The notes beneath the pieces were generated by a model, which saw only the letters and a program-made list of their open reading frames with translations, was not told where the DNA came from and did not search any database. The position numbers were made by a program, and so were the translations under genes. A DNA stretch of 41,312 nucleotides from an uncultured Muribaculaceae bacterium (GTDB taxonomy: Bacteria > Bacillota_I > Bacilli_A > RF39 > UBA660). The stretch's first letter is position 1, and the number at the start of each line of letters is the position of its first letter. Positions 1-34,754 of the stretch are shown here, piece by piece. The stretch spans positions 1 to 41,312 of the forward strand of contig CAZBKY010000003.1 in the NCBI GenBank assembly GCA_964492595.1, given 5' to 3'.

Positions 1-479
1 AAAAAACCGAACAGCAAGGAACCTCATACACAACAAGTTCATTAGATACATCAGGAATATACAATATGTGGAAACTGGTTACAGCTTCTGAAAATGCATC
101 AGGAAAATACACAGACGGAAACACATTGGTAACTTACATTTATGAAAAAGTAATGGGTAAATTAATTATTAATTACGTAGATGAAAATGGTAAAGAATTG
201 CTAGAAAGCAAAGTAACTTCACAGCAGGTTGGAACATCATACGAATCTAAGCCTGAAGATATAGATGAGTACATATTAAAATCTGTAGAAGGATCAGAAT
301 CTGGAAACTATATTGAAGGAGAAATTATAATCACTTATATATATGAATTAGCTGGTACTGGTGGAGATGAACCAACAGACACTGGAATTGAGAATTCCAT
401 CCTTCCGGAAGTTATGTATATAGTAAGTTCAATATCATTAATAGGAAGCCTTATAATAAAGAAAAAATTCAGCAATTAA
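1..479 (+). CDS. C-terminal part of a MucBP-repeat cell-surface protein (5' end outside window)
   Basis: The frame is open from nt 3. Two repeats of about 65 aa carry a MucBP-like signature (GTSYTTS...GNTLVTYIYEK; YVDENGKELL...GTSYESK...GEIIITYIYEL). They are followed by a Gly/Thr/Asp linker, a 16-aa hydrophobic segment and a KKKFSN tail. This is a sorting-signal-like architecture without a canonical LPXTG. Confidence 0.7.
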   Translation, partial: KTEQQGTSYTTSSLDTSGIYNMWKLVTASENASGKYTDGNTLVTYIYEKVMGKLIINYVDENGKELLESKVTSQQVGTSYESKPEDIDEYILKSVEGSESGNYIEGEIIITYIYELAGTGGDEPTDTGIENSILPEVMYIVSSISLIGSLIIKKKFSN

Positions 480-4767: not shown

Positions 4768-4844
4768 GGACCTTTAGCTCAGTTGGTTAGAGCATCCGGC
4801 TCATAACCGGGCGGTCGTAGGTTCGAGTCCTACAAGGTCCACCA
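4768..4844 (+). tRNA. tRNA with CAT anticodon, probably tRNA-Ile2 (lysidine) rather than elongator Met
   Basis: 77-nt cloverleaf GGACCTT...AAGGTCCACCA with encoded CCA and anticodon loop CTCATAA. The acceptor stem has C4 and C5, and overall it resembles ileX-type tRNAs as I recall them. Confidence 0.9.
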
Positions 4845-7273: not shown

Positions 7274-7358
7274 TGGTGCAGGTGAAGGGACTTGAACCCC
7301 CATGAGTTGCCTCGCTAGATCCTAAGTCTAGTGCGTCTGCCAGTTTCGCCACACCTGC
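7274..7358 (-). tRNA. tRNA-Leu (TAG anticodon)
   Basis: The reverse complement GCAGGTGTGGCGAAACTGGCAGACGCACTAGACTTAGGATCTAGCGAGGCAACTCATGGGGGTTCAAGTCCCTTCACCTGCACCA folds as a class II tRNA with a long variable arm. Anticodon loop CTTAGGA; CCA encoded. Confidence 0.9.
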
Positions 7359-15069: not shown

Positions 15070-15075
15070 TAAATT

Positions 15076-15254
15076 AACCTAGGAATAATGATAGCTAAAA
15101 TATAATAAACCAACATATTAGTAATGGGAATCTAATTAGATACTGGTGTTGAATACTAAGAAATATCTTAGGATCCTAAAAGTGTTTATGTGATGCCCCC
15201 CTCGTACGTGTACGAGTTTAATAACTTTTAGCGCCGTATTCTTGGGTATTTTTT
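15076..15254 (+). ncRNA. ssrS: Candidate 6S-like structured sRNA
   Basis: About 180 nt with no ORF and its own promoter. A long-range closing stem pairs CCUAGGAAUA (15078-15087) with UAUUCUUGGG (15237-15246). It contains two G-U pairs that exist only on the + strand. The stem is extended by GCUAAAA (15094-15100) pairing with UUUUAGC (15226-15232). An apical hairpin CUAAGA-AAUA-UCUUAG lies near the midpoint, and a small hairpin CUCGUA-CGUG-UACGAG lies on the 3' side of the central region. A U-run ends the element. It lies next to rarA. Confidence 0.4.
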
Positions 15255-17103: not shown

Positions 17104-18009
17104 ATGAAAAGGGTAGTAGTTATGAACAATAATTTAATAGAAGAGTATAAAACATATATTTTGTTAACTAAAAAACTATCTGGAAACACTATTAAAAGTT
17201 ATTGTATTTCTTTATATAAATTTTTAAAATATATAAAGAAAGATTTAACATTAGTGAATGAAAAAGATATAACTAAATATTTATTTTATTTAAATAATAT
17301 CCTATCAGATAATTCTATAAATAATAAAATAGTTTCATTAAGAGAGTTTTATAAGTACTCATCTAGAAAGCATAACTTTGAAAACCCAATGATTAATTTT
17401 AATACGAGAAAAAGTTCAAAAAAACTACCTGTTTATTTAACAATTGAAGAAATTAATAAATTACTCTCTATTGATTTAAAAAACAAATTTGATTATAGAA
17501 ACAAGGCAATGCTTGAGTTGATGTATGCAACAGGTGTAAGAGTCAGTGAATTATTAAATTTAAAGTTAAATAGTATAGATATTACAAACTGTCTTATAAA
17601 AGTTGAGGGGAAGGGTAATAAAGAAAGAATATTACCTATAGGAGACACAGCTATTAAATATTTAACTATATATATAAATGAATACAGAAACAAGCTATTT
17701 CCTAAAAATAAACCATACAATAATTATTTATTTTTAAATAATCATGGAGATGAGTTAAGTAGAGTAACATTTTATAAAATTATAAAAAAAGAAGCAGTAA
17801 ATAAAGGCATAAGAAAGAATATAAGCCCTCATATATTAAGGCATAGTTTCGCGACACATATGCTGGAGGGTGGAGCAGATTTACGAAGTGTACAGTTATT
17901 GCTGGGTCATGAAAATATAACAACTACTGAAATATACACACATTTAAGTAATGATTTTGTTAAAAAAAGTTATTTTGAATCAAATCCAAGAGCAAAAAAG
18001 GAGGAGTAA
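17104..18009 (+). CDS. xerD: Tyrosine recombinase XerD/XerC family
   Basis: 301 aa. Catalytic motifs ATGVRVSEL, HILRHSFATHML, LLGHENITTTEIYTH. xerD-deoB linkage as in Bacilli. A dif site lies 2.2 kb downstream. Confidence 0.8.
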   Translation: MKRVVVMNNNLIEEYKTYILLTKKLSGNTIKSYCISLYKFLKYIKKDLTLVNEKDITKYLFYLNNILSDNSINNKIVSLREFYKYSSRKHNFENPMINFNTRKSSKKLPVYLTIEEINKLLSIDLKNKFDYRNKAMLELMYATGVRVSELLNLKLNSIDITNCLIKVEGKGNKERILPIGDTAIKYLTIYINEYRNKLFPKNKPYNNYLFLNNHGDELSRVTFYKIIKKEAVNKGIRKNISPHILRHSFATHMLEGGADLRSVQLLLGHENITTTEIYTHLSNDFVKKSYFESNPRAKKEE

Positions 18010-18012
18010 TTT

Positions 18013-19179
18013 ATGTTTAAAAGGATTTTTTTAATAGTATTAGACAGTGTAGGGGTGGGAGCCTCAGAAGATGCTGGTGAATATGGGGATGATGGTGCTA
18101 ATACATTAGGTCATATAGTTGAAGGAAAAAATTATAATCTCAATATAATGGAAAAACTTGGATTTTTAAATTTAGTCGGAAAAAATGAAAGTACAAAATA
18201 TAGTATCTACTGTAAAATGAGACCCAATAATGCAGGAAAAGACACATTAAATGGCCATTATGAAATTGTGGGAATAAAAAATGATTCTCCCTTTGCAACT
18301 TATCCAAACGGATTTCCCTTAGAGTTAATCTCTAAAATAAAAGAATTAAGTGGTAGAGATGTAATTGGAAATATAGTCGCATCAGGAACTGAAATTATCG
18401 ACAAATTGGGAGAAATGCAAATGAAAACAGGAGCTCTGATAATTTACACTTCAGCTGATTCAGTTTTACAAGTTGCTGCTCATGAAAATATAATACCATT
18501 GGAAGAATTATATGATATATGTCAGAAAATAAGAAATATAACTATAGGGGAACCATATAATATTGGAAGAATTATTGCCAGACCTTACATCGGAACTTTA
18601 AATAATTTTACTAGAACTTCAAATAGAAAAGATTTTGCCATAGATCCTCCACTTAATTTGCTTGATTTATTATATAAAAATAATCTTCAAACAATCTCAA
18701 TTGGTAAAATCTCAGATATATTTAATAATAAATCAATAAGTACTAAGTTAAAAATCAAAAATAATTTAGATGGCCTTATGAAAATGATTGATTTTTCAAA
18801 AGCAGATTTTAGCGGGTTGTGTTTTGTTAATTTAAATGATTTTGACTCCTTGTATGGTCATAGGAGAGATAAGGATAATTATTTAAAAGCTTTGGAAGAA
18901 TTCAATTATTATTTACCAATATTTTTAAAAAATATCAAAAAAACCGATTTGGTAATATTTACCGCCGATCATGGAAATGATCCTACATTTAAAGGAACAG
19001 ATCATACAAGAGAAAATGTGCCTCTTATCTTATTTAGTCCATACATAAAAAATTCAAGAAGAATAGGGGATAGATCAACATTTTCTGATATAAGCGCTAC
19101 AATTTTAGATAATTTTAATATAGAAAACCCCCTTACTATAGGAAATTCTATTATGAACGAAATAAAAAAAGAAGAATAA
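18013..19179 (+). CDS. deoB: Phosphopentomutase
   Basis: 388 aa. LDSVGVG, DFDSLYGHRRD, TADHGNDPT motifs. Confidence 0.95.
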   Translation: MFKRIFLIVLDSVGVGASEDAGEYGDDGANTLGHIVEGKNYNLNIMEKLGFLNLVGKNESTKYSIYCKMRPNNAGKDTLNGHYEIVGIKNDSPFATYPNGFPLELISKIKELSGRDVIGNIVASGTEIIDKLGEMQMKTGALIIYTSADSVLQVAAHENIIPLEELYDICQKIRNITIGEPYNIGRIIARPYIGTLNNFTRTSNRKDFAIDPPLNLLDLLYKNNLQTISIGKISDIFNNKSISTKLKIKNNLDGLMKMIDFSKADFSGLCFVNLNDFDSLYGHRRDKDNYLKALEEFNYYLPIFLKNIKKTDLVIFTADHGNDPTFKGTDHTRENVPLILFSPYIKNSRRIGDRSTFSDISATILDNFNIENPLTIGNSIMNEIKKEE

Positions 19180-19191
19180 ATCTTCTTTTTT
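19164..19191. terminator. Bidirectional intrinsic terminator
   Basis: AAAAAAGAAGA-ATAAA-TCTTCTTTTTT. It serves deoB (+) and the convergent small ORF (-). Confidence 0.65.
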
Positions 19192-19208
19192 AGGCTGTTA
19201 AATAACAA

Positions 19209-19331
19209 TTATTTTCTAGCTCTACTTCTACTTCTACTTTTTGAATTTGAAGTATTTCTTGCATTATTAGTTCTAGCTCTACTTCTACTTCTTGAATTTG
19301 TAGAATTTGCTCTAGCTCTTGTATTAGCCAT
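19209..19331 (-). CDS. Unannotated 40-aa Arg/Ser-rich basic peptide
   Basis: MANTRARANSTNSRSRSRARTNNARNTSNSKSRSRSRARK. SD GGTGGTGA lies 7 nt upstream of the ATG, and a terminator lies downstream. The gene is built from two 57-nt tandem units (19214-19270 and 19271-19327). Confidence 0.5.
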   Translation of the reverse strand: MANTRARANSTNSRSRSRARTNNARNTSNSKSRSRSRARK

Positions 19332-19391
19332 TTTTATATCACCACCTACAATTATTATGGAAAAAATTTAATTATAAATGCATATAGTTAA

Positions 19392-20168
19392 GTGATTCTT
19401 ATGGAAATATTTGGACCTTTGCTAATATCCACTATATCTGGGCTTTCTACAGTTATCGGTGGACTGATAGTATATTTAAAAATTAAAAAAAGAGATGAAT
19501 TTATCACCACTTGTCTTAGTTTTTCATTAAGTGTTATGATTATGGTATCTATTATTGAACTAATACCAGACTCTTCTTATATAATAATACAAAAATACGG
19601 ATATTTTTATGGTTTTATAATATTTATATTAGTTTTTTTAATTGGAATGATTTTAGTTAATTATATAAATAAAAAAATAGATAAAATATCAAATAGTTAC
19701 TGCTATGACTCTTCAAGTAAAAATTTGTATAGAGTAGGGTTATTAAGTATGTTTGCCCTTATGCTTCATAATTTTCCAGAAGGAATCGCTACGTTTATGA
19801 GTGCTTATAAAGATTTAACTTTAGGAATTAGCCTTGGACTCGCTATAATGATGCATAATATTCCAGAAGGAATATCTATTGCTGTACCTATTTACTACTC
19901 TACAGGCTCAAGAATAAGAGGAGTAGTGTACTCTCTTATATCTGGTATTGCAGAACCTATTGGTGCATTACTTACATATATAATATTTAAGAATTATATA
20001 ACTGATATATCATTAAGTATAGTATTAATATTAGTTGCAGGAATTATGATAACATTATCAATAAATAAATTATTTCCAGAAGTTTTAAAATATAACAAAA
20101 AAAAGAATATGATAATTGGTATGGCATTAGGTGTAGTAGTGGTTCTTATTAATCATTTCTTATTGTGA
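19392..20168 (+). CDS. zupT: ZIP family zinc transporter
   Basis: Polytopic membrane protein with HNFPEGIATF and HNIPEGISIA motifs. The start is either GTG at 19392 or, more likely, ATG at 19401. Confidence 0.9.
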   Translation: MILMEIFGPLLISTISGLSTVIGGLIVYLKIKKRDEFITTCLSFSLSVMIMVSIIELIPDSSYIIIQKYGYFYGFIIFILVFLIGMILVNYINKKIDKISNSYCYDSSSKNLYRVGLLSMFALMLHNFPEGIATFMSAYKDLTLGISLGLAIMMHNIPEGISIAVPIYYSTGSRIRGVVYSLISGIAEPIGALLTYIIFKNYITDISLSIVLILVAGIMITLSINKLFPEVLKYNKKKNMIIGMALGVVVVLINHFLL

Positions 20169-20177
20169 ATATATAGA

Positions 20178-20205
20178 AGTTAACATAATATATATTATAC
20201 GAAGT
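20178..20205 (-). other. dif: dif chromosome-dimer resolution site (XerC/XerD target)
   Basis: The - strand reads ACTTCGTATAA-TATATA-TTATGTTAACT. The B. subtilis dif as I recall it is ACTTCCTAGAA-TATATA-TTATGTAAACT, giving 25 of 28 identical positions. It lies in the convergent intergenic gap where gene orientation switches. Confidence 0.75.
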
Positions 20206-20295
20206 ACACCATATAAGTAAAAATACTTAATCAACAATTTTCTATCTATCCAACATATTAAATATAACACATTTATAAAAGTGTCTACTTATTTT

Positions 20296-20601
20296 CTAAA
20301 AATATATAATAATAATTGCCAAAAACAATAAAATAATTAAAGGTATCACAGAAAACAATATAAAATTAGAATGCTTTTCTTCTTGTTTTTTATATTCTCC
20401 TATACTATCAATCTTATTAAGATTAATAGTTTTAAATTTAATATAAACAAAAATTATCAAAAAAATTAATAACAACAAAATAATAATATTTATTGTATAC
20501 AAAGTTTTGAAATTATTTATCATAAATAAATAATTTTCATAATAATCTCCTACTGAATTATATATAGAATTTAATTGATTATTAAAATCCAAAATATTCA
20601 C
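20296..20601 (-). CDS. Small membrane protein (2 TM)
   Basis: 101-aa ORF with two strongly hydrophobic segments. It lies 35 nt downstream of the HTH gene on the same strand. Confidence 0.5.
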   Translation of the reverse strand: MNILDFNNQLNSIYNSVGDYYENYLFMINNFKTLYTINIIILLLLIFLIIFVYIKFKTINLNKIDSIGEYKKQEEKHSNFILFSVIPLIILLFLAIIIIYF

Positions 20602-27959: not shown

Positions 27960-29156
27960 TTAATTCTTTCCTTTCACTTCCGCCTCTAAGAATCCTTTAT
28001 AAAGTAGGACTTCTATATTATCTCCAATATTGGCAGACTCACTGTTTTTTAATATATCACCATTGTATTTTACAATGCTATATCCTTTTTCTAATAAATT
28101 TTCCGGATTTAAAAGCTCCAGTTTCATTTTTAGGGATTCAAATCTATTATTATCTTTTATAATTTTATTATTTATTACGTTATTTAACTTAACTTTTATA
28201 TTTTCTATTTCCTTATATTTTATATCATACATTTTTAAAGGATTATTTAACAAATAATTACTTTTATATTTATTTATTTTTTCATTATAATAATTTATTT
28301 TACCTAATAAGGCAGTATTTAATCTATTTACTGCATCACTTAAATATCCTTCAATATCTTCTTTATTTTTAACTACTAACTCTGCAGCGGCAGTTGGAGT
28401 TGGGGCTCTTAAGTCTGCCACAAAATCCGCGATTGTATAGTCAATTTCATGCCCTACAGCACTTATTATAGGAACACTACTATTATATATAGCTCTAGCA
28501 ACTATTTCTTCATTAAAAACCCATAAATCTTCTATAGAACCTCCGCCTCTTCCCACAATTAATACATCTATATCAGTTTCATTTGCTTTATCTATCATTT
28601 TAACAATTCCCTCTTTAGCACCTTCTCCCTGAACTAAACTAGGAAATAAATATATTTCACATAATGGATATCTTCTATTGATTGTAGATATAATATCTTT
28701 TACTGCAGCGCCCTCTTTAGCTGTTATTACCCCAATTTTTTGTGGAAATCTTGGTATCTTTTTTTTATGTGAGGAGTCAAATAGTCCTTCGGTTGATAAT
28801 TTCTTTTTTAACTCTTCAAATAAAACATATAAATTTCCTACTCCATCTTGTTTTATTTCTGATACTGATATCTGATAACTCCCACTAACTGTATAAACAT
28901 TTATTTTACCTCTAATTAAGACAGAATCTCCATCTTTCGGTGTAAATAATAATTTATTTTGAGCGTTAAAGAATACTGCATTTATTTTACTGTTTTCATC
29001 TTTTAGAGAAAAATATAAATGTCCTCTTGAATGATATTTCAGATTACTTATTTCACCTTTAACATATATTTCAGATAAAAAATCATTGCCCTCAAGAATA
29101 GTTTTTATTATTTCATTAATCTCTGTGATACTTCTATAATTCATTTTTAACCTCAT
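27960..29156 (-). CDS. xseA: Exodeoxyribonuclease VII large subunit
   Basis: 398 aa with an OB-fold N-terminus (VKGEISNLKYHSRGHLYFSLKD) and a catalytic core (RGGGSIEDLWVFN). The start could be M5 (29144). Confidence 0.95.
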   Translation of the reverse strand: MRLKMNYRSITEINEIIKTILEGNDFLSEIYVKGEISNLKYHSRGHLYFSLKDENSKINAVFFNAQNKLLFTPKDGDSVLIRGKINVYTVSGSYQISVSEIKQDGVGNLYVLFEELKKKLSTEGLFDSSHKKKIPRFPQKIGVITAKEGAAVKDIISTINRRYPLCEIYLFPSLVQGEGAKEGIVKMIDKANETDIDVLIVGRGGGSIEDLWVFNEEIVARAIYNSSVPIISAVGHEIDYTIADFVADLRAPTPTAAAELVVKNKEDIEGYLSDAVNRLNTALLGKINYYNEKINKYKSNYLLNNPLKMYDIKYKEIENIKVKLNNVINNKIIKDNNRFESLKMKLELLNPENLLEKGYSIVKYNGDILKNSESANIGDNIEVLLYKGFLEAEVKGKN

Positions 29157-29547
29157 TATCTAAAATATTATCTAACACTCCATTTATTAATGGCACTACT
29201 TTTTCATCTGAATATTTTTTAGCCAGCTCTATAGCTTCATTTATAACGACTGCTTTAGGTGTAGAAGTATATAATAATTCAAATACACTTAATTTCAAAA
29301 TAGCCTGATCAGTATTTCCAAGTCTTTTAAAACTCCAGTTTTTTAAATATTTTTCAATAAGATTTATCAAATCTTTTTCTTTTTCTATAACACCATACAC
29401 TAAAAGATTGACAAATTCATTTTCTATATCGAGTTGCTCTTTAATGATGTCTTTTATCTCATAATCAAGATTTTCTTTTTTATAAAAATCAACTTGATAT
29501 AAAATAATCATAACTTTTTCTCTTAGTTCACTTCTAGTGTGTCTCAT
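29134..29547 (-). CDS. nusB: Transcription antitermination factor NusB
   Basis: Start moved to MRHTRSELREKVM, with SD AAAGGAGA. Typical NusB helices (AILKLSVFELLY, VVINEAIELAKKY). Confidence 0.9.
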   Translation of the reverse strand: MRHTRSELREKVMIILYQVDFYKKENLDYEIKDIIKEQLDIENEFVNLLVYGVIEKEKDLINLIEKYLKNWSFKRLGNTDQAILKLSVFELLYTSTPKAVVINEAIELAKKYSDEKVVPLINGVLDNILDNEVKNEL

Positions 29548-29578
29548 ATATTCTCCTTTTATTATATAAATTTTATTA

Positions 29579-32290
29579 TTAATTACAATCTGAAACATAT
29601 GTGTTTCCTAAAGTCCCAGAATTACATGTGAATGAAGTCCCTTTTATACAAGTGCTTGAAGACTGTTGTGAACTATTAAATCCATAAGTAACATTTTGTG
29701 TACAAGTGTCAGTTTGTTGTCTTCCTTCAGTCCAATTACTTGAATTGCAGGCAAACGAATTTATTGTACAACTACTTACAACATCATTTTGAGAAGAGCT
29801 AAAATTATAACTGTAATTTGTATCACATGAAACATAGTAAGTGTTGTATGTCGAACTTGAACATGAAATTAAATTATCAGAACAGGAACTTTCAGTAGTA
29901 ATTGATGGAACACCAAAATAATATGAATAATTTTTAACACTACAAGAAGATACATAATTTTGATAATAATGGCTTGAGTTACATGTAAACCCTGGAGTTT
30001 TTGAACAACTTGGTACAGTTGAAGTGGAATCTGAAAAACCATATATAGGAGGTGTTGTTGTACCATCAATTACTACACATGTTCTTGTTGTTTGATTCCA
30101 ATTATATACATCTCTATCACATTTTTTAGAATTTTTAGTATAGTTTGCAATCGTTCTAACACATTCTTTATATGTCCTACTATAAGATACTAGATTTGAT
30201 ATACAAGTTTTTGTTACTTTTGTCCATTCTATTCTATTAAATACCGCATTTATTATGACAGGTTCAATTCCCATTGTAAGAATATTTCCATTTATAGAAC
30301 TTCCTGCTCCAGATACTAAATCCCATCTTACAAATTGATATTTACTTTTTGATGGCGTAGGAAGAGTTACAGTAGTGTTATATTTCATAGTTGTTGGTAA
30401 ACCAGTACTTAAAGCTCCACTGGTTTCATCATCAGCACAACTATAAGTTGTTGATAATTGGTACTCATCAGTGTATATTGCTTTTGCATAAGTATAAGTG
30501 CTTCCCATTATTATATTATTACCATTAGAAAAACCATCTCCTCCTGTAACTTCCCATCTTACAAATGTTTCTCCGATGTTTCTAACAGGAGGAATTACAT
30601 TAATAATATCTTCTGGATAATAATATTTAGGAGAAGTGTTAGTTTCTGAAAATCCCCCATCTAAATCTATAATTAATAAATTCATAGGATTTTCATAAAT
30701 AATGTTGCGCATAAAATTATAAGAAATTCTGGCATGACCATTTCCTGATTTTGCATAATTCTCTATAGGGTTTGAACTATACTGTGTGGTTGTTATTGTT
30801 TTAGTGTTTTCATCATCAGAAATAGTACAATTAAAACAACACATATATTTGTTTATTAAATTTTCATTGCCTATATAACCAGAACCACCACCACCACCAG
30901 TGCCATAGCCTTGAGCTCCACCATAATAACCTCCACCTCCACCTCCACCCGCTGCACCCACGGTAGATTGAAGAGCCATTCCATATAACCCATTTTTTAA
31001 ACTGTTATAAGCATTAACTCCACCAGAGGTTTGAGTCCCTCCATTTGCATAATAAGCAGGTGTGGAGTAAGTACCGCTAGAAGCAGTACCGAGTCCTCCA
31101 ATATATCCACCTCCATGTCCCGGAATGTAATTAGAAGTACTTGTGATTCCACCTCCACCTCCTGCAATTATTATTCTTGAATTTAATCCTAGGGTTGAAT
31201 TCCATAACAAATCAGAGGATTCTGGTGGTGTTTCCCCGAAAAGTCTTATATCTGTAGACCCTCCTCCGCCTTGAGAATAAGCACCAGAATTATTTCCCCC
31301 TGTTCCTCCACCATTATATCCACCCGCAGCATAATAAGTGGTGCCAGAAGTAACTGTTAAACCACTTCCTCCTACATACGTGTATAGATTTTCACCTCTG
31401 GTTAAAAACATATCTCCTTTAGAGTAAGCACCATATCCTCCTATCAGGGAACCAGAATAACTTCCTCCTTGAGCTCCCCATACTTCTAATGTGTATAAGC
31501 CATTTGCCATTACTGGATATATTTGAGCTGTAGGAGTATATGAAAAATCAGCTTGTTTAGGTATTAAATATACTTCACAAAAAGTACTGTTAGTTCTATT
31601 TATTAATTCAAACTCATTTCCCACTATTGAAATTGAAGCTCCATCAGTACAATAAGTTAAAAATGTATCAATGGTATAATTTGACAATGTCAAATCTTCA
31701 GTTACTAATTCATCCACAACATAGGTAGTAATAATATCATTTTGAACATATTCTTTAATTCCTATCCAAACATCTCCCACAAAATATTTATCTTGATTAT
31801 GTATTTGATTGTTTACTGGATCTGATACATATGTAATTGTTAATGTGTAATTTCTTTCTTCTTGAGGTAGTATGACTACATCGTATAATATAGGGCCATC
31901 TATTGAAGGAAGATATCTTGCAGAAACCAACTGTCCGACCACATCATCTTCTAAGGTATACATTAAATAGTTCTTATTTACAAAAGTATTCTCTACAATA
32001 GTCCATATCAAACTGAATGTAGCAGAATTTGTTGCACTATTATTTATAATACTGAAAGTTTTTATTATGCTTTCTCCAGGTGCCAAATCTGTTTGAACAT
32101 TATCGGATGTTCCTCTGTATGTTATTGCAATATAAGCTGAAGTAATATTCATAGAAGCGGCATCGCCTAGGACAGCATAAGCAACCCATGCATATGCTGT
32201 ACCAATTAAAGCAACCAAAAAACAAATAACACTAACTATCATTAATTTTTGTTTTCCACTTAATTTTAATTTTGATTTTTCTATTTCCAT
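29579..32290 (-). CDS. Large secreted/anchored multidomain protein: TasA-like N-terminus, ALK-type glycine-rich domain, 2 Listeria-Bacteroides repeats, Cys-rich C-terminal repeats
   Basis: 903 aa with an N-terminal TM/signal (aa 15-40). DLAPGESIIKTFSIINNS resembles TasA NLKPGDKLTKDFQFENNGS. The glycine-rich domain spans aa ~248-525 (LEVWGAQGG, GGYGAYSKG, LYTYVGGSG, GGYNGGGTGG, GGGGSTDIRL, RIIIAGGGGG, GGGGGGGYYGG, GGGGGSGYIG, GNGHARISY). PF09479-like repeats span aa ~535-686 (DLDGG...GETFVRWEV; YQFVRWDL). There are 16 Cys in aa 696-902. Confidence 0.85.
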   Translation of the reverse strand: MEIEKSKLKLSGKQKLMIVSVICFLVALIGTAYAWVAYAVLGDAASMNITSAYIAITYRGTSDNVQTDLAPGESIIKTFSIINNSATNSATFSLIWTIVENTFVNKNYLMYTLEDDVVGQLVSARYLPSIDGPILYDVVILPQEERNYTLTITYVSDPVNNQIHNQDKYFVGDVWIGIKEYVQNDIITTYVVDELVTEDLTLSNYTIDTFLTYCTDGASISIVGNEFELINRTNSTFCEVYLIPKQADFSYTPTAQIYPVMANGLYTLEVWGAQGGSYSGSLIGGYGAYSKGDMFLTRGENLYTYVGGSGLTVTSGTTYYAAGGYNGGGTGGNNSGAYSQGGGGSTDIRLFGETPPESSDLLWNSTLGLNSRIIIAGGGGGITSTSNYIPGHGGGYIGGLGTASSGTYSTPAYYANGGTQTSGGVNAYNSLKNGLYGMALQSTVGAAGGGGGGGYYGGAQGYGTGGGGGSGYIGNENLINKYMCCFNCTISDDENTKTITTTQYSSNPIENYAKSGNGHARISYNFMRNIIYENPMNLLIIDLDGGFSETNTSPKYYYPEDIINVIPPVRNIGETFVRWEVTGGDGFSNGNNIIMGSTYTYAKAIYTDEYQLSTTYSCADDETSGALSTGLPTTMKYNTTVTLPTPSKSKYQFVRWDLVSGAGSSINGNILTMGIEPVIINAVFNRIEWTKVTKTCISNLVSYSRTYKECVRTIANYTKNSKKCDRDVYNWNQTTRTCVVIDGTTTPPIYGFSDSTSTVPSCSKTPGFTCNSSHYYQNYVSSCSVKNYSYYFGVPSITTESSCSDNLISCSSSTYNTYYVSCDTNYSYNFSSSQNDVVSSCTINSFACNSSNWTEGRQQTDTCTQNVTYGFNSSQQSSSTCIKGTSFTCNSGTLGNTYVSDCN
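29582..30046 (-). repeat. Four tandem coding repeats of a ~36-42-aa three-cysteine module
   Basis: aa 749-903. Each unit is (Y/T)(S/G)(Y/F)xF, then a Ser-rich stretch, then C-x6-7-C-NSS-x11-14-C. Examples: SCSKTPGFTCNSS...SSC; SCSDNLISCSSS...SC; SCTINSFACNSS...TC; TCIKGTSFTCNSG...DC. Confidence 0.7.
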
Positions 32291-32324
32291 ATCAACCTTA
32301 AAAATTATCTTAATTTACTTTTTA

Positions 32325-32353
32325 ATTATATAAAAAAAAGAATATTATGTCAA
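32325..32353 (-). promoter_or_regulatory. Perfect consensus sigma-A promoter for the 903-aa gene
   Basis: The - strand reads TTGACA (32353-32348), 17 nt, TATAAT (32330-32325). The -35 abuts the dtd stop codon. Confidence 0.7.
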
Positions 32354-32354
32354 T

Positions 32355-32801
32355 TTAACACACTACACTATCTAGCAAAATTGTTACAGGTCCATCATTT
32401 GTTATCTTAACTTTCATATCAGCACCAAAAACACCTTTTTCTATTTTTATTCCGAACAAAGTTAAATTTTTATTAAAATATTCATAAAGCTCATTAGCAT
32501 CTTCCTGTCTCATTGCAGTAGAAAAAGATGGTCTTCGCCCCTTTGCGGTATTGGCATATAAGGTAAATTGACTTATACTAAGTATTTCTCCTTTTATATC
32601 TAATAAACTTAAATTCATCAGTCCGTTATTATCACTGAAAACTCGCAGGTTTATAAGTTTATCAATCATTTTATCCACTGTTTTTTCATCATCTGTAGAA
32701 GTAAAACCAACAAAAACCACTAAACCTTTATTTATTTTTCCAGTTATGTGACTTCTCACAGAAACATTACTTTCTAAACTCCTTTGAATTAATAATTTCA
32801 T
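32355..32801 (-). CDS. dtd: D-aminoacyl-tRNA deacylase
   Basis: 148 aa. GLVVFVGF, SQFTLYA, KGRRPSF motifs. Confidence 0.95.
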   Translation of the reverse strand: MKLLIQRSLESNVSVRSHITGKINKGLVVFVGFTSTDDEKTVDKMIDKLINLRVFSDNNGLMNLSLLDIKGEILSISQFTLYANTAKGRRPSFSTAMRQEDANELYEYFNKNLTLFGIKIEKGVFGADMKVKITNDGPVTILLDSVVC

Positions 32802-32858
32802 ATCAAATTTGCCTTTCTATTTTTACTAATTGACAGTATATATATTTCAGTTTATTTT

Positions 32859-34754
32859 CTATTTTTTATTATGTTTTTCATTCCATCTTATATCAATAAT
32901 TCTTTTATCATTTAAATTTATATTTTGGCAGTTCTTTGAATGGACCATTATCCCGCTGCTTTTTGTAACATAACCCACTATTTCCTCTCCATGGGTGGGA
33001 TTACAACAAGAAGCAATAGAAGAAGGTATGTTTGATTTTCCATTTACAAGAATGTTGTTTGAAGGAGAACTTTTTGTATCTTTTAATACTTTAGTTTTTT
33101 CTTTCTTTGGAATGATTTTGTTTAAAATAGTTGAAGGAAAATATTTTAAAACTGAAATATTAAAATATAAGTCATCAATATTTTCTAACTTTAATTCTTT
33201 TAATAATTCATTTATGTTTTTATCTTTTAAAATAACCTCTATATTAAGATTTCTTTTTTTAATCTCATTTTCAAGCATACATTTGCCTGAAGCAATCATT
33301 TTATCTTTTTCTTTTTTATAAAAATATGATCTTATTCTTCCTCTTGCCTGTTCTGTTTTAACAAATTTCAACCAATTTTTACTTGGAGAGGCTCCTTTTT
33401 TAGTATTTATTTTTACTATATCCCCATCTTCAAGCTTATAATCTAGTTTAACTATTTTATTATTAACTAAAACACTTGCAACACTATTACCAACCTCTGA
33501 ATGTATTTTGTAGGCAAAATCTATTGGAGTTGAGCCTGAAGGCAGTTCAATAACATCACCAAGAGGAGTAAATACATAAATCTCTCCTGCTTTTAATTCG
33601 TTATTTATATTTTTAAAAAAATCTACACTGTCATTTATATCTTTAGATTCAATTAAAGCTCTAAAAGACTCGAGTCTCATTTCCATATTATTTTTTACTT
33701 TTCCATCTGATTTTTCTTTATATGACCAGTGCGATGCTACTCCAGTTTCTGCGATTGCATTCATATCATAAGTTCTTACTTGAAATTCATATATTCTACT
33801 ATTTATGCCAAAAACAGTAGTATGCAAACTCTGATACATATTTGATTTCGGATTAGCAATAAAATCTTTAAATCTTTTGGGAATAAAACGATATTTTGAA
33901 TGAATCAGTCCAATAACCAGATAACACTCTTCTATTTTATTAACAAGTATTCTTATTCCAAGTAAATCATAAATGTCTTCCCATTTTTTTCCTGCATGAA
34001 TTTTATTAAATATTCCTCTAACACTTTTTACTCTACTTGTTATATCAAATTTTATATTATGTGAATTTAATATTTCTATAAATTCCATCTTCATAGAATT
34101 TAAATCTTTTTCGAGCTCATTTTTTGAAGTATTAATTTTGTTTAATATTTCTGCATATTCTTCTGGATATGTGTATTTTAAGCAAAAATCCTCTAGTTCA
34201 CTCATTATTTTTTTGACACCTAGTCTATGAGCAATAGGTACTAAAATATTCATTGTTTCATCAATTATTTCTTTTTGATGCTCACTACTATGAACATAAA
34301 TTGTTTTTATATTATGAAGACGATTTGCAAATGTTATAAAAAGTGCTTTGGGATTTTCTGATAAACCCACAATAATCCTTCTATACCTTTGTGCATTATT
34401 GCCTTTATTAAATGTTCTTTTTAAACTGCTTATTTTTGAATAGCTCTGTAAAATTACAGCAATTTCTTCTCCAAAACAATTTTCTATTTCTTCAAATGTC
34501 ATTTTTTCAAGTATAATCGCTTCATGAAGTAATGCAGAGCCAATAGTTGCAGGATCCATTTTTAATTCTGATAAAATGTAAGCTACTGTGATAGGATGAT
34601 GAATATAATCCTCCCCTGTTTCTCTTTTCATATTTTCATAAATCTTAAGAGAGGATTTATAATATTTATCAATTAAATTTAAAGCCCCTTCATCCATGTA
34701 TGTTTTTAATGAGTTTACTAAGTCATTATATGAAATTATGTTTGAATTTTTCAA
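32859..34754 (-). CDS. rel: RelA/SpoT homologue with degenerate hydrolase motifs and no C-terminal ACT/RRM domain
   Basis: 631 aa. The synthetase domain is intact (YQSLHTTV, EFQVRTYDMN, GVASHWSYKE). The TGS domain and Cys-rich ZFD (CCNPTHGEEIVGYV) are present. The HD region reads LLHEAIILEKM and FANRLHN instead of LHDVVEDT and LADRLHN. The protein ends right after IDIRWNEK. Confidence 0.9.
   Translation of the reverse strand: MKNSNIISYNDLVNSLKTYMDEGALNLIDKYYKSSLKIYENMKRETGEDYIHHPITVAYILSELKMDPATIGSALLHEAIILEKMTFEEIENCFGEEIAVILQSYSKISSLKRTFNKGNNAQRYRRIIVGLSENPKALFITFANRLHNIKTIYVHSSEHQKEIIDETMNILVPIAHRLGVKKIMSELEDFCLKYTYPEEYAEILNKINTSKNELEKDLNSMKMEFIEILNSHNIKFDITSRVKSVRGIFNKIHAGKKWEDIYDLLGIRILVNKIEECYLVIGLIHSKYRFIPKRFKDFIANPKSNMYQSLHTTVFGINSRIYEFQVRTYDMNAIAETGVASHWSYKEKSDGKVKNNMEMRLESFRALIESKDINDSVDFFKNINNELKAGEIYVFTPLGDVIELPSGSTPIDFAYKIHSEVGNSVASVLVNNKIVKLDYKLEDGDIVKINTKKGASPSKNWLKFVKTEQARGRIRSYFYKKEKDKMIASGKCMLENEIKKRNLNIEVILKDKNINELLKELKLENIDDLYFNISVLKYFPSTILNKIIPKKEKTKVLKDTKSSPSNNILVNGKSNIPSSIASCCNPTHGEEIVGYVTKSSGIMVHSKNCQNINLNDKRIIDIRWNEKHNKK

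Follow-up and report, generated by a model that had tools for sequence, protein, structure and literature searches.

An ALK/LTK-type glycine-rich domain joined to a remote TasA-like domain in a predicted surface protein of an uncultured bacterium

Introduction

Why would an uncultured, low-GC bacterium of gut type encode, among its housekeeping genes, a protein that carries a domain of the animal receptors ALK and LTK, and what might such a protein do? The question is raised by a gene on the minus strand (29579..32290) of contig CAZBKY010000003.1 (assembly GCA_964492595.1), of which positions 1 to 41,312 were analysed; we call this whole 41,312-nucleotide stretch the window, and the 903-residue product of the gene Q. 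To our knowledge, the glycine-rich domain (GRD) of ALK and LTK is among the very few natural polyglycine-II (PGII) folds, and it is functionally known only as an animal cytokine-binding domain. A preliminary description of the window had recognized such a domain in Q, together with three other modules in the same chain. Here we ask, in turn, what the glycine-rich segment is, what carries it, where its relatives occur, and what these observations together suggest about function. At the domain level, Q is a bona fide member of PF12810 and is not an ALK-family receptor. As for the protein as a whole, we lean towards reading Q as an exported, modular, adhesin-like binding protein of the cell surface or extracellular matrix.

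A PF12810 domain of the ALK/LTK type

The GRD occupies residues 248-532 (30695..31549, minus strand) and includes a C485-x-x-C488 pair and a closing GNGHARISY strand. Glycine makes up 24% of residues 248-530 as compared with 5.5% of the rest of Q, and the 12 Gly motifs named in the preliminary description are all present, in the order given there, between residues 249 and 524. A HMMER check of the Pfam family proposed earlier, PF12810 (ALK_LTK_GRD), returned a match to residues 261-524 with an E-value of 9.3e-36 and a score of 124.5 bits against a cutoff of 24.5, spanning positions 5-242 of the 243 in the profile. In a comparison of 120 bacterial GRD copies, conservation reaches 80% or more at 83 positions, 47 of them glycines; Tyr, Ile, Leu, Trp, Gln and two Cys residues are among the others, and the segments that separate the Gly motifs vary.

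How similar is this domain to the one in ALK? A single-sequence phmmer search with the whole of Q against PDB sequences returned only spurious Gly-linker matches and missed ALK, so a profile search of the PDB was required. When 91 bacterial GRD proteins were turned into a profile and PDB sequences were searched with it, ALK was the only protein recovered, the alignment running motif by motif, with E-values of 9e-11 to 5e-9 for human ALK and 2e-9 for Caenorhabditis elegans SCD-2. With a profile restricted to the GRD, we also placed Q and ALK residues 722-945 in one alignment and projected onto it the experimentally defined ALK PGII helices, the list of which includes 740-747, 751-757, 776-782, 816-824 and 841-848 (PMC13243192). 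These first five helices map to Q residues 272-279, 282-288, 307-313, 340-345 and 376-383, respectively; the later ALK helices are collinear with Q, with a register that is ambiguous because Gly runs repeat. Beyond the end of the profile alignment to ALK lies a segment of the form M-x-C-[YF]-x-C (MCCFNC in Q; residues 485-488, 30827-30838 on the minus strand), both Cys residues of which are found in at least 90% of the bacterial GRD copies and might form a short disulfide or a metal site.

Structure prediction leads to the same place. The AlphaFold2 model of residues 235-535 is compact (mean pLDDT 89.5, pTM 0.89), with 36% of its residues in helix or strand and 64% in neither, and as a model it is consistent with an ordered lattice that is neither α nor β, short of proving one. 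When this model was compared with the PDB by Foldseek, all 21 matches at E≤0.001 were ALK/LTK GRD chains (E=5e-9 to 4e-6, probability 1.00, TM 0.34-0.46, rmsd 9-14 Å), and the next match was a cyanophage fibre at E=8e-3. Because the TM-scores are modest, fold identity with ALK/LTK is supported yet not tight. The ALK/LTK-type assignment made in the preliminary description is nevertheless borne out by the Pfam score, the bacterial-GRD profile, the helix mapping, and the combination of AlphaFold and Foldseek.

These data also bear on two dismissive readings of Q, which we find hardly credible: that its glycine stretch is disordered low complexity, an alternative that the preliminary description had itself named, or that Q is a camelysin-type metalloprotease. 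A segment with a Gly content of 24% invites the first thought, and the naming of PF12389, the camelysin/TasA family, as a peptidase family invites the second; the compact, confident model and the ordered, conserved non-Gly positions speak against disorder, and Q, with four His among its 903 residues, lacks the HExxH motif of a protease of this kind. The glycine segment is a real domain, neither a chance occurrence nor plain low complexity.

A remote TasA-like domain at the N-terminus

How might a GRD be brought to the cell surface? The first 34 residues of Q (32189..32290, minus strand) form, as judged from hydrophobicity and a junction motif, a putative SipW-type signal peptide or else an uncleaved membrane anchor: a Lys-rich N-region and a hydrophobic core are followed by the junction G30-T-A-Y-A34|W35. 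The sole hydrophobic segment of Q spans residues 14-40, and the ∼15 residues before it would be cytoplasmic. In the family defined by the N-terminal domain (NTD) of Q, the hydrophobic segment ends in the motif G-x-[ST]-[YF]-A-[YWF]-[FY], each position of which is kept in 53-76 of 76 members, a degree of conservation that goes far beyond that of an ordinary Sec signal. TIGR04088, the profile for SipW-dependent-type signal peptides, matches relatives below threshold, at 16.2 bits against a cutoff of 19. From these sequence patterns we infer that a SipW-type cleavage may occur after A34. The prepilin motif G-F-[TS]-L-[IV]-E and the profile PF07963 are absent from Q, as are an LPXTG-like motif and a C-terminal hydrophobic tail, the protein ending in ...YVSDCN.

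The signal segment is followed by a TasA/BsaA-like β-sandwich domain (residues 35-177; 31760..32188, minus strand), assigned from the family profile, a structural model, Foldseek, and sub-threshold NCBIfam matches, and by a small second β-domain or linker (residues 178-247; 31550..31759, minus strand) that is without a Pfam match and is kept only in the closest subfamily (P0002 and P0121-P0129). An exhaustive HMMER search with residues 1-247 recovered at least 550 cluster representatives, 46 of them at E≤1e-10. The NTD is always N-terminal in the matched proteins, and 47 of the 150 representatives listed are standalone proteins of at most 220 residues, often ∼180. A strand motif, PG-x4-K-x-F-x-[VI]-x-N, is common to proteins of the family.

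Several lines of evidence connect this family to TasA. One member, P0140, passes the PF12389 cutoff (28.7 bits against 22.5), and other members score 17-20 bits. Among NCBIfam profiles, TIGR04090 scores up to 27 bits against a cutoff of 60 and NF046066 up to 23 against 450, and the labels that recur below threshold are 'BsaA family SipW-dependent biofilm matrix protein', 'biofilm matrix protein TasA' and 'SipW-dependent-type signal peptide'. The NTD-family profile matches TasA itself (PDB 5OF1, and the fibre 8AUR) over the first strands with E-values of 6e-4 to 8e-4. In the AlphaFold model of the Q N-terminus (pLDDT 86), residues 12-41 form a helix, 54-177 a β-sandwich and 187-244 a small β-domain; the top Foldseek match of this model in the PDB is the TasA fibre 8AUR (E=3e-4, probability 1.00), and further matches after it are other donor-strand fibre subunits. 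The donor strand of TasA lies directly C-terminal to the SipW cut (PMC9674648), and BsaA is reported to work in the same way (PMC11580942). In the NTD family, the PG motif stands as far from the junction as it does in TasA. We conclude that the N-terminal domain of Q is probably a remote TasA/BsaA-superfamily domain, one that falls outside those families by curated cutoffs.

The same region can be read in another way, namely that Q keeps its N-terminal anchor and sits in the membrane as a type II protein, a monomer outside any fibre whose TasA-like domain is a membrane-proximal, Ig-like stalk. The confident modelling of residues 12-41 as one continuous helix would suit such an arrangement, as would the failure to find sipW nearby and the reported membrane anchoring of BsaA oligomers (PMC11580942). 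A simple anchor, however, would hardly explain why the junction motif is kept across 76 members, standalone proteins of ∼180 residues included, and the TasA-like spacing between junction and PG motif likewise argues against it; we regard the anchored-monomer arrangement as quite unlikely.

Tandem repeats and a Cys-rich tail

C-terminal to the GRD are two tandem domains that resemble the Listeria-Bacteroides, or InlB-B, repeat. The first (residues 533-606; 30473..30694, minus strand) is without a Pfam match of its own and is recognized by alignment to a relative, P0016; the second (residues 607-685; 30236..30472, minus strand) lies just under the Pfam cutoffs, with 26.6 and 25.5 bits against 27 for PF09479 and 20.5 against 23.6 for PF18998. 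The PF09479 check is therefore narrowly negative by score (26.6 against 27) and positive by homology: two neighbouring certified repeats of P0016 (PF09479 and PF18998) can be aligned with Q residues 531-690 at E=1e-12, and further copies align with E-values of 3e-10 to 9e-7.

The remainder of Q is a Ser/Thr/Asn/Cys-rich region without a Pfam match (residues 686-903; 29582..30235, minus strand), defined by Cys spacing and repeats. Four Cys residues exactly 14 residues apart (696, 710, 724 and 738) are followed by four repeats of ∼40 residues, with three Cys each and the motif SSC-x5-F-x-C-[NS]-S...C...Y-x-F. No DNA-level tandem repeats of note underlie these protein repeats. The tail shares 49% identity with the C-terminal part of P0121; it is common to P0121-P0128 and is found in seven of the 150 NTD-family representatives listed, Q included, and other NTD-family members carry Cys-rich tails too. 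The repeat may represent an undescribed disulfide-rich or metal-binding unit. When the last 218 residues were used as the query of a word-index homologue search, it came back empty, missing even Q itself; given the homologues at 49% identity this is a false negative, and negatives of this search on queries rich in Ser, Thr, Asn and Cys are untrustworthy. The 'three other modules' of the preliminary description can thus be named as the TasA-like N-terminal domain, the two InlB-B-repeat-like domains and the Cys-rich repeats, with the amendment that the tail has homologues.

The locus and the exchange of modules

The Q gene (29579..32290, minus strand) opens with an ATG codon, preceded by a weak AAGG ribosome-binding site, and encodes 903 residues followed by a stop codon. 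It sits within a co-directional housekeeping run, proS, secDF, relA, dtd, [Q gene], nusB, xseA, xseB, spoIVB, glyA, folD, and the earlier remark that its neighbours give no hint of a role remains apt, all of them being housekeeping genes. The 64-bp gap 3' of the dtd stop codon contains a candidate promoter (32325..32353, minus strand; TTGACA, 17 nt, TATAAT) that agrees with the consensus at 12 of 12 positions and is the only such match within 29000-33000. Promoter-like sites as a whole are not enriched in that interval (22 observed, 25 expected), so the candidate is only suggestive. There is no terminator between the Q gene and nusB, the true start of which is the ATG at 29546.

Is the GRD an integral part of this protein, or cargo? 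The two closest relatives of Q, P0002 and P0121, are likewise encoded directly downstream of dtd. P0002 has the TasA-like domain, the GRD and the repeats, but ends in a Gly_rich_2 C-terminus; P0121 is without a GRD, with the TasA-like domain, the two repeats and the Cys-rich tail all in place. Q residues 1-243 and 533-903 match P0121 at ∼50% identity, and residues 248-532 have no counterpart in it. Because the dtd-downstream orthologue P0121 lacks the GRD and P0002 has another C-terminus, the GRD behaves like exchangeable cargo, carried by a conserved scaffold at a conserved locus. The wider family shows a similar distribution: nine of the 11 closest NTD-family members are without a GRD, and of the 150 NTD-family proteins listed, only Q and five others possess one. 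At residues ∼244-256 of P0121 (locus L082), at the site where the GRD of Q starts with 'DFSYTPTAQIYPV' (residues 248-260), stands 'SFTPTYTDQERF'; the 'SFTPTYTDQERF' of P0121 might be the remnant of a deleted GRD, but the nine GRD-less proteins among the 11 closest members weigh the other way.

GC3 is 0.18 in the GRD and 0.12-0.16 in the other modules of Q, and recent horizontal acquisition of the GRD segment is unsupported by these values. Reference genomes and JGI metagenomes, scanned with a single protein as query, did not yield a close relative. The housekeeping proteins of the window are singletons at 90% identity, and the nearest loci compared share 50-68% identity; a close relative of the organism is absent from the sequence collection searched.

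Relatives in bacteria

The preliminary description had singled out the Q gene as the least ordinary of the window, and here the data point the other way: the domain is common. A first homologue search gave at least 1869 database matches, nearly all to PF12810, and a scan of reference genomes gave at least 349 related stretches, often several per genome; rarity was overstated, since the domain family has been on record for a long time and proteins of this kind are plentiful. The best 80 of the at least 349 relatives come mostly from metagenome-assembled genomes (MAGs) of uncultured gut 'Bacilli' and 'Tenericutes' (human, rabbit, rumen, mouse), with Bacteroidota and a few cultured Firmicutes also among them. 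The 80 best loci hold 110 GRD open reading frames (ORFs) in tandem arrays of up to seven, and in many paralogous proteins 2-7 GRDs occur in series. Among the 119 top GRD matches, 17 also carry PF09479 and seven carry the type IV pilin motif PF07963.

What do these proteins have at their N-termini? The classes include true prepilin signals (GFTL[IV]E), found on the GRD paralogues P0005, P0017 and P0047 and at several genome loci; TasA-like signals; lipoboxes, in Bacteroidota; and others. The combination of a TasA-like domain with a GRD that is seen in Q recurs at five loci (L013, L014, L027, L062 and L081).

Some further observations concern individual loci. Tandem GRD arrays are found in L032, L030, L008, L015 and L052, with seven copies within 12.8 kb in L032 and five lipoprotein-type copies in the Prevotellaceae locus L030, and a third, very common N-terminal class of GRD proteins reads 'MKKTTILIIVVLFMVIGYAAYN-T-NIYG'. 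In a mouse-gut Bacilli MAG (CAJUPN010000012.1; L045, 1-9511), a 437-residue GRD gene lies directly upstream of xseA-xseB-spoIVB, as in the window, and directly 3' of this gene is what, by eye, looks like a Tad/CpaF-type pilus set, consisting of two CpaB-like proteins, an ATPase with GETGSGKTE, and two TadB/C-like membrane proteins.

Relatives in phages

The GRD of Q also has strong matches in phages. When predicted viral structures (BFVD) were searched by Foldseek, 92 matches reached E≤0.001. Gut-virome proteins such as A0A8S5SE10 come first, with TMq up to 0.66 and 31% identity, and others are cyanophage and Caulobacter phage proteins labelled 'virion structural' or 'putative short tail fibre'. 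The families phrog_1589, phrog_5811 and phrog_7388 match with E-values of 1e-31 to 1e-34, and IMG/VR holds 113 GRD-related stretches; a tblastn search with the GRD against 50,697 GenBank phages returned nothing at 1e-5. All three PHROGs are annotated as of 'unknown function', and our literature searches were empty on bacterial GRDs, in keeping with the earlier statement that the function of the domain in bacteria and phages is essentially unknown.

At one phage locus (L112) the genes encode, in order, tail protein, baseplate wedge, tail/baseplate protein, tail fibre, GRD protein, endolysin. Of ten further non-redundant loci, three have a tape-measure gene just upstream of the GRD gene, two have one for a tail-fibre or long-tail-fibre distal subunit, and five have an unannotated gene there. 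All of the annotatable upstream neighbours of phage GRD genes, six of six, are in other words tail genes, and lysis genes lie downstream. L089 (762-10624) and related IMG/VR loci, on large gut phage contigs of 85-175 kb, have a pair of successive GRD genes, after which come genes for a radical SAM protein and an endolysin.

Could the Q gene then be a phage remnant, a domesticated tail-fibre or receptor-binding protein left behind by a prophage? The strength of the GRD matches to phage families is what recommends this idea. We consider it very improbable: the neighbours of the Q gene are all housekeeping genes, with phage genes absent; the position downstream of dtd is common to two relatives; Q has a bacterial signal and TasA-like N-terminus; and the GC3 of the GRD is near that of the other modules, with the GenBank phage search empty at its threshold.

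A proposed role for Q

How might these parts work together in the exported, adhesin-like protein that we favour? A SipW-type signal peptidase would cut the conserved G-x-[ST]-[YF]-A|[YWF] junction, and the TasA-like domain would then keep Q at the surface through donor-strand complementation with TasA-like subunits encoded elsewhere, as in TasA/TapA and BsaA; alternatively, Q could be retained by staying membrane-associated. We put forward the fibre-attachment step only tentatively, with less than even confidence. The GRD would form a rigid glycine-helix lattice packed on a β-sandwich, a Gly scaffold presenting variable loops, and these loops may bind a ligand on the surface of the host, of mucus, of food particles or of neighbouring cells. 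In Q, the variable loops comprise residues 311-322, 330-340, 382-389, 402-414 and 425-449. The B-repeats and Cys-rich repeats would serve as a spacer, as a second binding region, or as both. Ligand binding by the GRD loops of Q is suggested by analogy with ALK/LTK and with the tail-module position of the phage relatives. The conserved Gly scaffold with its variable loops favours, as far as sequences can tell, a binding module, and multi-copy tandem GRD arrays are typical of variable surface proteins, which also speaks for the proposal. The candidate consensus promoter is suggestive of expression of the Q gene.

A structural role has to be weighed against this one. Q might be a matrix or envelope protein in which the GRD is a rigid, protease-resistant spacer or a cross-linking block of a TasA-like biofilm scaffold, with no specific ligand. 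The relatives TasA and BsaA are matrix scaffolds (PMC9674648, PMC11580942), the scaffold glycines are the most conserved positions of the GRD, and the 2-7 GRDs in series of many paralogues look like beads on a string. On the other hand, the sole characterized GRDs, those of ALK and LTK, bind ligands; phage GRD genes occupy the positions of receptor-binding-protein genes; and variable loops together with large, diverse paralogue families suit recognition better than scaffolding. We judge a purely structural role to be unlikely.

A number of points weigh against the binding protein that we propose, or against steps of it. For the TasA-like domain, Q itself has no above-cutoff match to PF12389, TIGR04090 or NF046066, and its structural similarity to TasA is weak (TM 0.36-0.38). 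For export and attachment, the single long helix that AlphaFold gives for residues 12-41 is also compatible with an uncleaved anchor, neither a sipW gene nor a standalone TasA-like gene was found in the 41-kb window or beside the NTD-family members examined, and Q is without a recognized cell-wall anchor. Extracellular Cys-rich repeats would be unexpected should the organism be an anaerobe. As for binding, a position in a phage tail module is no proof of receptor binding, and our literature searches turned up no binding, localization or cleavage data on bacterial GRD proteins.

Returning to the adhesin-like reading of Q, we offer a broader and more doubtful conjecture, namely that bacterial GRDs are fibre-displayed receptor-binding modules, carried by type IV pilins, by TasA-like subunits and by phage tail fibres. 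On this conjecture Q would be a tip or decorating adhesin of a TasA-like fibre, a Gram-positive counterpart of two-domain pilus adhesins like FimH, and the ALK/LTK domain would share ancestry with, or descend from, a microbial or phage adhesin module.

Other features of the window

The window has several features apart from the Q gene. A 6S RNA gene (15073-15252, plus strand) matches Rfam RF00013 with 47.7 bits against a gathering score of 46.4, and tRNA genes lie at 4768-4841 on the plus strand and at 7277-7358 on the minus strand. At ∼19000-20300, the GC skew changes sign and gene orientation turns from plus to minus, leaving convergent genes; this may be the region of the replication terminus. 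A XerD-like recombinase is encoded at 17104-18009. At the edge of the window, a 137-residue ORF (66-479, plus strand) contains a MucBP (mucin-binding) domain with E=2e-17. Possibly one end of a longer surface protein, it is compatible with a gut or mucosal habitat.

Implications

Bacterial and phage relatives of the GRD number in the thousands, and their fibre-forming fusions, cargo-like presence and absence, tandem arrays and phage tail position point to a surface-recognition module presented on filaments. Three aspects appear to be undescribed in the literature searched: the fusion of GRDs to TasA-like and pilin carriers, the cargo-like behaviour of the GRD at an orthologous locus, and the consistent tail-module position of phage GRD genes. 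If our proposal is true, a large 'hypothetical' family of under-studied, uncultured gut bacteria would gain a role, the TasA/BsaA fibre model would be extended to modular subunits, and there would be a hint at the origin of an animal receptor domain. If it is false, the Q gene encodes one more variable surface protein, of ordinary interest.

Comparison with known systems

Of the known systems, the GRD of ALK/LTK and C. elegans SCD-2 (PF12810; PDB 7LRZ, 7N00, 7NX1 and 7LIR, among others) is the obvious reference. Q shares with it the order of the Gly motifs and PF12810 homology, and the Q model may likewise combine a β-sandwich with an ordered lattice that is neither helix nor strand; identity, however, is only 15-20%. 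PDB entry titles show that the ALK/LTK GRDs were crystallized with ALKAL/AUG ligands. Q is without the transmembrane-kinase context, the EGF-like domain and an ALKAL-type ligand, a Pfam scan having found neither a kinase nor an EGF-like domain in it, so the domain alone is held in common. Beyond the part aligned with ALK, bacterial GRDs add the conserved M-x-C-x-x-C segment, and they have a closing GNGYA-I strand, and in Q the GRD is placed inside a multi-module protein that is predicted to be secreted.

The closest structural relatives of the Q GRD are the phage GRD proteins (phrog_1589, phrog_5811 and phrog_7388), which are often tandemly duplicated. They are without the signal and TasA-like N-terminus and are encoded in tail morphogenesis modules, whereas the Q gene is chromosomal and lies among housekeeping genes. 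A conceptual analogue of the GRD among phage proteins, and the other PGII binding domain known, is the tail-fibre adhesin gp38 of Salmonella phage S16 (PDB 6F45), whose conserved Gly-rich motifs form a PGII sandwich presenting variable receptor-recognition loops (PMC13243192). At one phage locus the GRD gene comes right after a gene for a 'long tail fiber distal subunit', just as the gp38 gene follows that of gp37. 6F45 is not among the best 50 of the 166 Foldseek PDB matches (E≤10) of the GRD model. There is no evidence of homology.

As for the carrier, the junction motif of Q resembles the SipW-type signals of TasA (Bacillus subtilis), BsaA (Clostridium perfringens) and camelysin, and TasA can be aligned with the NTD family over its first strands and over PG-x4-K-x-F-x-[VI]-x-N. 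TasA and BsaA, in contrast, are single-domain subunits, whereas Q carries ∼725 residues of passenger modules after its NTD. Listeria-Bacteroides or InlB B-repeats (PF09479, PF18998, TIGR02543), of which Q has two tandem copies, are a recurrent partner of the GRD (17 of the 119 top matches). Finally, there are modular type IV pilins that bear adhesin modules, such as PilB and PilC of Streptococcus sanguinis. Q has no prepilin motif, but the principle is shared: a filament-subunit domain at the N-terminus, with a binding module grafted onto it.

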